This document shows, in pieces, positions 1 to 386 of a stretch of 386 nt of DNA. Made by a program: the position numbers and the translations under genes. The first letter of the stretch is position 1; every line of letters starts with the position of its first letter. The DNA comes from Escherichia coli (lineage in GTDB: Bacteria > Pseudomonadota > Gammaproteobacteria > Enterobacterales > Enterobacteriaceae). The notes under the pieces are model-generated. The model ran no database searches. It worked only from the letters and a program-made list of their open reading frames with translations, and was not told the origin of the DNA. Location of the stretch: the NCBI RefSeq assembly GCF_003334355.1, contig NZ_QOWP01000110.1; one strand, written 5' to 3'.

Positions 1-35
1 ATGCTTCCATCGGAAACGATGATCTGGCAGCCTGA
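1..35 (+). CDS. 3' end (last 10 codons plus stop) of an IS3-family orfB transposase, IS629-like; partial, 5' end outside the window
   Basis: Frame with codons starting at position 3 reads A-S-I-G-N-D-D-L-A-A-stop (TGA 33-35); positions 1-2 complete a codon begun outside the window. The stop lies about 40 bp inside the element terminus, as expected for orfB of IS3-family elements. Only 10 codons are visible, so the call depends on the adjacent inverted repeat and on recollection of the IS629 transposase C-terminus. Confidence 0.45.
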   Translation, partial: ASIGNDDLAA

Positions 36-52
36 GTTCACAGATAAAACAC

Positions 53-77
53 TCTCCAGGAAACCCGGGGCGGTTCA
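53..77 (+). repeat. Terminal inverted repeat (right end) of the IS629-like element, about 25 bp; inner boundary approximate
   Basis: + strand 53-77 is tctccaggaaacccggggcggttca; its complement TGAACCGCCCCGGGTTTCCTGGAGA starts with the IS3-family TG dinucleotide and contains the CCCGGG palindrome at 64-69. The 25-bp length is from memory of IS629-type repeats; the other end is not in the window for comparison. Confidence 0.45.
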
Positions 78-216
78 CTTTTCGCCAGTCCTGTAATTCC
101 ATACTTAGATGTCCGTCTATATCAGATGGGCGTCTAAGTTACCAATTCTCGTCTGATGGCTACATACGGCGGTCAGTTTACGCTTACGTGTCAAGAGGGA
201 TTTCTCAGCCCCTCAC
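78..216. other. 139-bp spacer between the two IS ends; no recognisable gene or RNA; probably a remnant of the original insertion target
   Basis: Bounded by the IS629-like terminus (…GGTTCA, 77) and the IS2-like terminus (TGGATTT…, 217). No ORF with a credible start and ribosome-binding site lies wholly inside it. It contains the near-repeat AGATGTCCGTCTA / AGATGGGCGTCTA and a small hairpin at 195-214. Confidence 0.5.
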
Positions 217-257
217 TGGATTTCCCCCTATATTTCCAGACACCTGTTATCACTTAA
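217..257 (-). repeat. IS2-like right inverted repeat (IRR), 41 bp; the outer terminus is at position 217
   Basis: Terminal TGG at 217-219 gives …CCA-3' on the transposase-sense strand, the IS3-family CA-3' end. The repeat contains the orfB stop codon at 228-230. Two positions, 224 and 243, differ from the canonical IRR as recalled. Confidence 0.7.
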
Positions 258-386
258 CCCATTACTGGCCCGCTGCCGTAGATATTCCCGTGGCGAGCGA
301 TAACCCAGTGCACTATGCGGATGCCATTCGTTATAATGCTCGAACGCCTCTGCAAGGTTCTTTGCTGCCGTTAACCCGTCTGGTTT
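228..386 (-). CDS. insD: C-terminal 52 codons plus stop of the IS2 orfB transposase (DDE/integrase-core protein); partial, N-terminus outside the window
   Basis: - strand translation from 386 down to 228: [52 protein letters not shown], with stop TAG (+ strand cta at 228-230). The …[18 protein letters not shown]… segment is the conserved C-terminal motif of IS3-family integrase-core transposases and matches the IS2 InsD C-terminus as I recall it, except Ser for Cys at the codon on + 264-266. Confidence 0.8.

Follow-up and report, generated by a model that had tools for sequence, protein, structure and literature searches.

A fragment of the ISEc23 left end in Escherichia coli contains a conserved inverted repeat that may form an mRNA stem-loop over the tnpA ribosome-binding site

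What are the two closely similar 13-mers that lie in an apparent spacer of the window (the whole stretch of 386 nt of Escherichia coli DNA that was analysed), and do they have a function? The 13-mers are AGATGTCCGTCTA at positions 107–119 and AGATGGGCGTCTA at 124–136, with a start-to-start distance of 17 nt. The original prediction described them as an imperfect tandem repeat with a third partial copy at 150–159, and offered a protein-binding site array, a decayed terminal repeat of another mobile element, or chance as possible origins. Both 13-mers are located where they had been placed and at the spacing given, and they are identical at 11 of 13 positions rather than the 10 that were claimed. 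The pentamer CGTCT, listed at 114, 131 and 150, is indeed present at all three positions; the list was incomplete, as the window contains another CGTCT at 377.

As a chance test, we used 1000 dinucleotide-preserving shuffles of the window. A direct-repeat pair with at least 10 of 13 matching positions within 30 nt is found in 32.5% of the shuffles, so the direct repeat is no rarer than chance. The same bases also give a 16-nt inverted repeat (103–118 and 124–139, 13 of 16 positions complementary, spacer of 5 nt), and just 0.6% of the shuffles contain one of this quality (13/16 over 16 nt). Since the inverted repeat is rare in shuffles and the direct repeat is common, the inverted symmetry is the signal: the ISEc23 left end has a 16-bp inverted repeat, and each 13-mer forms the core of one of its arms. 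The tandem repeat was rejected as the primary description: besides being common by chance, it has two units only, and these have centres that complement each other instead of being identical. The original prediction was correct in calling each unit roughly palindromic, which is true across the family.

The apparent spacer turned out to be part of a pile-up of insertion sequences, whose members are listed below by window coordinates.

1–77, plus strand: right end of IS1203 (IS3 family); in L001 the CDS of the IS1203-family transposase ends at locus position 6035, which is window 35.
78–187, minus strand: left-end fragment of ISEc23 (IS66 family), element nt 1–110, with 100% identity to intact left ends.
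188–200: short junction.
201–386, minus strand: terminal stretch of an IS2-like (IS3 family) element, including the 3' portion of the transposase gene, according to annotations.

The original prediction had proposed aligning the spacer with known sequences, and this alignment identified positions 78–187 as a known IS fragment, namely the ISEc23 left end: the identity is 100% over 110–112 nt to the left ends of intact elements, which are annotated by PGAP as 'IS66-like element ISEc23 family transposase' and carry tnpA, tnpB and tnpC directly downstream of the left end. In L002 the element is intact: it begins with GTAAGCGTAAACTGACC..., ends with ...GTTGACGCTTAC, and has the 8-bp duplication CTAAAAAC on either side. 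The window holds a fragment of ISEc23 and not a whole element, with only 8 tnpA codons, without the complete tnpA-tnpB-tnpC set, and with the right end missing. Window positions 76–77 read CA, which we take to be the usual IS3-family terminus, and the ISEc23 homology begins exactly at 78; the IS1203 insertion truncated the ISEc23 tnpA and sets the boundary of the fragment. The 'spacer' at 78–187 is thus a 110-bp IS fossil, one of the three insertion sequences piled up here. Strain PSS-12 alone, out of 5,426 complete E. coli genomes, matched the full window, and this match is collinear with the window only up to position 217; the window is identical to L001 6001–6217. Positions ~201–386 are contiguous in about 4300 E. 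coli genomes, in which they are annotated as 'IS3 family' or 'IS2 family transposase'. The suggestion of a decayed terminal repeat of a mobile element was therefore right as to a fragment of another mobile element (ISEc23, IS66 family); the fragment is undecayed, being 100% identical to intact copies, and the motif is subterminal and no terminal repeat.

Within the fragment, an element position equals 188 minus the window position (minus strand), and the following features can be placed.

158–187, minus strand: left terminal inverted repeat (IRL) GTAAGCGTAAACTGACCGCCGTATGTAGCC, matching the right end GTAAGCGTCAACGGAGCACCGTAT... of the intact copy.
150–159, no strand: third partial copy CGTCTGATGG, apparently a chance resemblance just inside the IRL.
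136–141, minus strand: conserved TAACTT after TGG, located where the stem begins on its 5' side; may be an extended -10 element.
124–139, minus strand: 5' arm of the dyad, ACTTAGACGCCCATCT, element nt 49–64 (columns 15–30 of alignment A3, see below), including the 13-mer AGATGGGCGTCTA (unit 1, centre CC).
119–123, minus strand: loop or spacer GATAT, element nt 65–69, differing in length and sequence by lineage.
103–118, minus strand: 3' arm of the dyad, AGACGGACATCTAAGT, element nt 70–85, including the 13-mer AGATGTCCGTCTA (unit 2, centre GA) and the GG equivalent to the Shine-Dalgarno sequence (SD).
78–102, minus strand: tnpA ATG (102–100, element nt 86) and first 8 codons; the annotated starts are L002 4025 and L003 4025.

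The noted region 107–159 corresponds to element nt 29–81, i.e. the leader that separates the terminal repeat from the start codon. On the coding strand the order is ...TTGGTA ACTTAGACGCCCATCT GATAT AGACGGACATCTAAGT ATG, such that the last base of the dyad (window 103) is position -1 of the tnpA ATG; the translation from window 102 begins MELQDWRK. The GTAAGCG terminus (window 187–181, minus strand) is invariant in 16 left ends, among which GTAAGCGT and CCGTMTG are the best-conserved blocks. The GG at window 113–114 (element nt 74–75) is invariant in alignment A5, and we assigned it to the Shine-Dalgarno position because relatives have AAGGAG (lineage D) and AGTGGA or GGTGGA (lineages B, E and F) in the same columns. 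In the TAACTT element the T is invariant in A3, the A and the final T are at least 90% conserved, and the A is invariant in A5.

To see whether the inverted repeat is kept in relatives, left ends were gathered from plasmids and from one-genome-per-species contigs using a TnpA alignment, covering TnpA identities from 100% to about 30%; wider sampling of viral contigs returned mostly near-identical copies, and a protein search returned only homologues with at least 78% identity. There are 63 loci with a recognisable GTAAG... terminus located 60–100 nt (mostly 81–89 nt) upstream of the ATG, representing 50 distinct leaders. In most of these 50 folded leaders the stem-loop ends a few nt from the start codon, and five (L040, L039, L066, L076 and L084) have little or no stem over the ribosome-binding site (RBS). 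For the covariation analysis we used alignment A3, a plain sequence-only MAFFT alignment of 34 distinct leaders that fall into 12 lineages at 85% clustering. Both arms occupy the same A3 columns across the 12 lineages (TnpA down to about 40% identity), and 74.7% of the cells pair in register as compared to 26–39% when the partner is slid by 1–3 columns. Changes are seen on both sides in 11 out of 16 pairs, and the covariation score is 0.239 versus 0.157 in shuffles, with none of 500 shuffles reaching the observed score. Examples of the two arms are AGACGCCCATCT/AGACGGACATCT in ISEc23, AGGTGCCCAC/GTGGACACCT in lineage B, AGAGCTCC/GGAGCTCT in lineage D and AGGTGTCCACTT/AGGTGGACACCT in lineage E (L064); the 5' arm is the C-rich complement of the SD-bearing 3' arm. 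The loop measures 5–10 nt by lineage majority and 4 nt in a few copies. We had tested for an inverted repeat that reaches the start codon with the SD in its 3' arm, and for pairing kept by compensatory change among relatives, and found both.

The conservation also bears on chance, which the original prediction had allowed for. A functionless chance similarity would agree with the frequency of the direct repeat in shuffles (32.5% of them) and with the motif count in 8–13 kb of surrounding DNA, where the proposed search for motif enrichment gave 2 occurrences against 0.5–0.85 expected, not significantly above chance. For the two main units we consider it hardly credible, given that the inverted repeat is so rare in shuffles and that 12 lineages, with compensatory changes, have it at one and the same position with respect to the ATG. 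For the third half-copy, chance is the best reading. The copy at 150–159 is absent from relatives, which have CCATTAGACAAG or CCATTAAGCCAG there on the minus strand; it is gone at 93–95% identity (L004–L006; CCATTAGACAAG) and missing from all other lineages too, so we rejected it as a member of the motif. An array of three or more copies, or of copies at both ends, was likewise rejected, with two units only and the third half-copy not conserved.

The explanation that we favor, and to which we would give an even chance of being right, is that the dyad is an mRNA stem-loop occluding the tnpA ribosome-binding site. In tnpA transcripts having both arms, the arms would pair and bury the RBS up to the base before the ATG, so that tnpA translation would be kept low; tnpB translation would probably be lowered as well via translational coupling. 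What the sequences show is the identity of the fragment, the placement of the dyad with respect to the SD and ATG, and a conservation that includes compensatory change; that this RNA folds in this manner in vivo and that folding represses translation is what we infer. The model assumes an mRNA that carries both arms. Since promoter scans gave no consensus site within the left end, transcripts with both arms may for the most part enter from neighbouring DNA or start at a weak promoter that departs from the consensus. The scans covered consensus sigma-70 promoters on either strand of the left end in ISEc23 and four other lineages, and weak or alternative-sigma promoters would escape them; nor did they detect the TAACTT element. 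Should TGG-TAACTT act as a -10 element, the start of resident transcripts would fall within the 5' arm, so that they avoid most of the stem and leave the full stem to read-through transcripts. Such an arrangement is known from IS10 and IS50, in which resident transcripts escape the stem and left-end inverted repeats that include the transposase RBS stop the translation of read-through transcripts. No intrinsic terminator was found on either strand of the left end, the dyad included, in ISEc23 or the four other lineages, and a search by eye for a junction promoter formed by abutted ends and for an IHF site showed nothing convincing. In the window itself the dyad has nothing left to regulate, as the element is a dead remnant with 8 tnpA codons. 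The variation of the spacer between the arms (5–10 nt) fits a loop better than it fits the fixed spacing of a protein dimer. Several observations count against an mRNA stem: the sense helix of ISEc23 itself is weak (values below), and a tenth of the folded leaders, five out of 50, have little or no stem; the SD of ISEc23 (GACGGAC) is poor, and there is possibly little to sequester; each 12-nt unit shows conserved palindromy that a simple hairpin does not need; unit 1 is apparently flipped in lineage F and in L090; and a palindromic operator that co-evolves with its protein could also give covariation between the arms.

A hairpin related to this dyad, read on the opposite strand, is seen in the small RNA AfaR. 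The only Rfam signal in the window is a weak AfaR (RF02515) match at 141–194 on the plus strand (19.1 bits, E = 0.39, model positions 60–113), which is below the gathering threshold of 100 bits; the true afaR locus (L091 1142–1375) scores 299.7 bits. When reverse-complemented, the afaR locus can be aligned to IS66 left ends over the terminal repeat, the dyad and onwards as far as TTATGGAAC (alignment A2, 77% mean column identity). In intact left ends the AfaR model finds matches on the antisense strand that begin at the hairpin base, model position 26 (46.9 bits and E = 6e-6 in L021; 30.8 bits in L023). Judging by these alignments, AfaR nt ~12–106 is an exapted IS66-family left end read antisense, and its first stem-loop (nt 26–47) is the antisense version of the ISEc23-type dyad; the order in AfaR is the antisense one, with the tnpA start, the dyad, and then the IRL. 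Pichon et al. (2013, PMC3664800) mapped the start site and a sigma-E promoter of AfaR and named IS2 homology alone, at the 3' end, with IS66 unmentioned. The IS66-family left end and the dyad are shared by AfaR and the window, and the window is without the AfaR promoter, 3' half and terminator; AfaR goes back to an ISEc8-like (lineage B) remnant within the afa-8 cluster, and its action on afaD is in trans. The antisense hairpin thus belongs to an Hfq-dependent sRNA that has been validated, and the 5' half of this virulence sRNA is a clear case of an sRNA built from transposon debris, correcting the published IS2-only origin. The AfaR promoter region does not align to tnpA. With its promoter outside the IS66-derived DNA, AfaR is therefore no proof that intact elements make such an RNA.

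An alternative to the mRNA stem-loop is that the antisense strand is the functional RNA: a short outward IS66 transcript with the dyad as a stable 5' hairpin, like IS10 RNA-OUT or IS200 art200, would block translation by pairing with the leader, SD and start codon of tnpA, instead of or beside the mRNA hairpin. We consider this unlikely, although the predicted folds speak for it in ISEc23. On the sense strand the ISEc23 hairpin has three C.A mismatches and about -11.5 to -12.2 kcal/mol (hairpin segment); its fold z-score is -2.1, with values down to -5.9 among lineages, and the whole 98-nt sense leader is no better than shuffles (z = -0.08). On the antisense strand (plus strand of the window) all three mismatches become G.U and the helix is unbroken over 16 bp; the predicted energy is -34.2 kcal/mol over the 98-nt segment and about -23 kcal/mol over the hairpin segment, and the z-scores are -4.6 and -7.3, all in silico. 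In the ISEc23 clade the antisense hairpins have -16 to -26 kcal/mol and the sense hairpins -9 to -19 kcal/mol. In several lineages (L043, L064, L073, L077 and L087) the sense helix is the stronger one. Among the non-Watson-Crick (non-WC) cells in the 12 core pairs, 88 are antisense-G.U, 17 are sense-G.U and 15 are other (25:9:6 with one vote per lineage), which seems to favor the antisense strand. However, a null that shuffles within arms already predicts an antisense share, a/(a+s), of 0.67, owing to a C-rich 5' arm and a purine-rich 3' arm, against the observed 0.84 by cell and 0.74 by lineage, and the distinct pair states in the core are 9:9:9; the 88:17 count was thus rejected as a verdict on the strand, as it is largely gone once composition and distinct states are considered. 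The outer four pairs, next to the ATG, have 27 sense-G.U cells and 1 antisense-G.U cell. The derived pair states within the clade (seven from WC to sense-G.U, three from WC to C.A, and seven with C.A repaired to WC, using unbiased fuzzy matching) lean to keeping the sense helix and more often break the antisense one. Consensus sigma-70 scans of five lineages found no outward promoter within the initial ~150 nt of tnpA; the sole candidate -10, TGTAAT at window 92–97, is not conserved in the A2 relatives, and no U-tract follows the hairpin on the antisense strand. The literature searched contains no report of an antisense transcript from intact IS66 elements, with only the exapted remnant AfaR documented (PMC3664800), and the sigma-E promoter of that remnant, as noted above, lies in DNA that does not align to tnpA. 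An antisense signal at IS66 OrfC in a P. aeruginosa sRNA paper was set aside as irrelevant, being at the transposase 3' end. Taken together, the sequence evidence favors neither the sense nor the antisense strand clearly.

A protein could also be what recognizes the dyad. The original prediction's array fails, with only two units in inverted orientation; its protein-binding role could still hold, as each unit is a conserved palindrome. The two units would then be DNA sites for a dimeric protein, the likeliest being TnpA itself (a helix-turn-helix (HTH) protein acting as an autorepressor or as a left-end transposition cofactor), else a host factor; one dimer would sit on each 12-bp palindrome AGryG-NN-CryCT, and the potential to form a hairpin would simply follow from having two palindromes side by side. 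This reading, which we rate as rather unlikely, is in line with the palindromy of both units in almost all of the 12 lineages (WC pairing at 72% and 78% of the five internal pairs, with about 25% expected) and with the conservation of the direct-repeat register (61% identity versus 12–37% when slid). Positions 3 and 10 co-change in both units: lineages A, C and D have A..T there, and lineages B and E have G..C. A flipped centre of unit 1, giving GTGGAC twice in direct orientation, is seen in lineage F and in L090 (an Erysipelothrix element), as if the unit is kept whatever its orientation, and L084 has one hybrid unit, as a deletion between direct repeats would give. TnpA carries the HTH domains PF13384 and PF01527, and the InsA proteins of IS1 and IS2 are HTH autorepressors that bind the left end. 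Against an operator stand the centre dinucleotides, the sole positions that separate direct from inverted symmetry: they are complementary between the units (C25-G46 in 33 out of 34 leaders) and identical in just 1/12 and 0/12 lineages, and the units are therefore inverted copies. The spacer varies between lineages by an amount that does not keep helical phasing; the inverted symmetry of ISEc23 runs 4 bp past the units (ACTT/AAGT), and in lineage F there is symmetry in the flanks outside the units; and no lineage has the 3' unit shifted relative to the SD and ATG. The flipped GA/GA centre of lineage F would form a tandem G.A internal loop, a stable RNA motif, and is compatible with an RNA stem. 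Subterminal transposase sites at both ends were rejected as a variant, the unit being found nowhere else in the intact element, including its right end. Another possibility, which we hold to be quite unlikely, is a dual-purpose dyad: read antisense it would be the 5' hairpin of an undescribed IS66 regulator similar to RNA-OUT and art200, AfaR would be a domesticated copy with an acquired sigma-E promoter, and the palindromic units would be TnpA operators too. If so, one 37-nt segment would combine DNA-level and RNA-level control in a family whose elements are spread widely among bacteria, E. coli, Shigella and Klebsiella included.

The mRNA stem-loop, if correct, matters beyond this dead fragment. 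On plasmids and pathogenicity islands of E. coli, Shigella and Klebsiella, few insertion sequences are commoner than those of the IS66 family (ISEc23, ISEc8, IS679 and relatives), and the control of their three-gene operon is essentially unstudied; the literature that we searched has no description of leader control in this family. The conserved stem-loop over the tnpA RBS would be a concrete candidate control point resembling those of IS10, IS50, IS200 and ISPpu9; control elements of this kind are ordinary in transposons, and this one is apparently new for the IS66 family.

Among these systems, IS10 and IS50 have left-end inverted repeats that include the transposase RBS, as the ISEc23 dyad does; unlike ISEc23, they have a resident promoter mapped between the repeats, belong to the IS4 family and carry a single transposase gene. 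The RNA-OUT of IS10 is a stable outward stem-loop RNA that covers the RBS. IS10 RNA-OUT is cited in PMC3349714 and PMC5006887. In ISPpu9, which has the sRNAs Asr9 and Ssr9, the structure of the tnp 5'UTR includes the RBS, as here, and weakening this structure raises translation (PMC8450116); the IS family and the host are different. The closest documented analogue is IS200, in which a left-end inverted repeat in the tnpA 5'UTR sequesters the SD and blocks 30S binding (Ellis, Trussler and Haniford 2015, PMC4513863). Like ISEc23, IS200 is an enterobacterial insertion sequence with an inverted repeat between the terminus and tnpA and with the SD in the 3' arm. It differs in being an HUH/Y1 single-strand transposon with one gene and unrelated sequence; its stem-loop is longer (nt 69–138), its SD is near-consensus, and it has a separate terminator hairpin (nt 12–34) that ISEc23 is without. 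Beside the tnpA 5'UTR stem-loop, IS200 also makes the antisense sRNA art200.

Each 12-nt arm core of the dyad that covers the tnpA ribosome-binding site forms a palindrome in its own right, AGryG-NN-CryCT, which is kept in nearly all of the 12 lineages in our alignment of IS66-family leaders (A3). The features referred to are as follows:

A3 columns 19-30 (window 124-135) and 41-52 (window 107-118): the 12-nt arm cores
Window 188-200: short stretch GTGTCAAGAGGGA that separates the ISEc23 terminus from the IS2-like element and was assigned to neither
L002 about 1581-1608, minus strand: right terminal repeat of the intact ISEc23 reference copy

The centre of unit 1 (the 5' arm core) is flipped in lineage F (L069, L071-L075, L081) and in L090, turning GTGGAC into a true direct repeat. 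Palindromic arm cores and a flipped unit 1 are not explained by a plain RNA hairpin. In Budvicia aquatica, a lineage-F relative (L084, about 335-380), one hybrid unit, ATAGTGGACGCTATCC, stands where others have two, as expected for the product of a deletion between both direct repeats; this locus is a natural mutant without the dyad hairpin.

In the intact ISEc23, the right terminal repeat carries a different palindrome (GCGTCAA-N12-TTGACGC), directly 3' of the tnpC stop codon, and includes an outward-facing -35-like hexamer, TTGACG, 5 nt from the tip. This copy is itself inserted in an IS2-like element, within the latter's left end (L002 4111-4150 and 1573-1580), with CTAAAAAC as the target duplication, another nested IS arrangement like that of the window.

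A terminator-like hairpin is on the antisense strand of tnpA codons 7-12 in an ISEc8-like element (L021 419-436, minus strand) and is followed by a T-run; outward transcription would end there, just before the dyad. A terminator-like stem detected by a scan within the IS1203 right end (window 56-68, minus strand) has the sequence CCGGGTTTCCTGG and a T-rich tail.

PSS-12 is the only genome "containing" the whole window, and it has ~351 bp more between window positions 217 and 218 (a junction corresponding to 6217-6569 of the PSS-12 locus, L001). Window ~201-386 is unbroken in ~4,300 other genomes. Because GGATTTC flanks the junction on both sides (window 198-204 and 218-224), a deletion between short repeats is possible; a different source strain is also possible.

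Elements of ISEc23 or ISEc8 type (TnpA identity 79-100%) were also found on contigs labeled Clostridia, Rikenellaceae, Macrococcus, Segatella, Bacillota, Collinsella, Actinomycetes and Chryseobacterium (L015, L016, L017, L021, L022, L050, L052 and L068). These labels look more like contamination by Enterobacteriaceae DNA (binning or assembly) than true host range.

Window 141-194 (plus strand) carries a faint echo of AfaR (RF02515), a validated Hfq-dependent sRNA (PMC3664800) whose locus lies in the afa-8 cluster (NZ_CP013025.1; L091 1142-1375). The 5' end of AfaR (nt ~12-106) is an IS66-family left end read antisense, with the tnpA start, the dyad hairpin and the terminal repeat following in that order along the sRNA. 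The original AfaR paper describes homology to IS2 alone, at the 3' end, and IS66 is absent from its text (PMC3664800).
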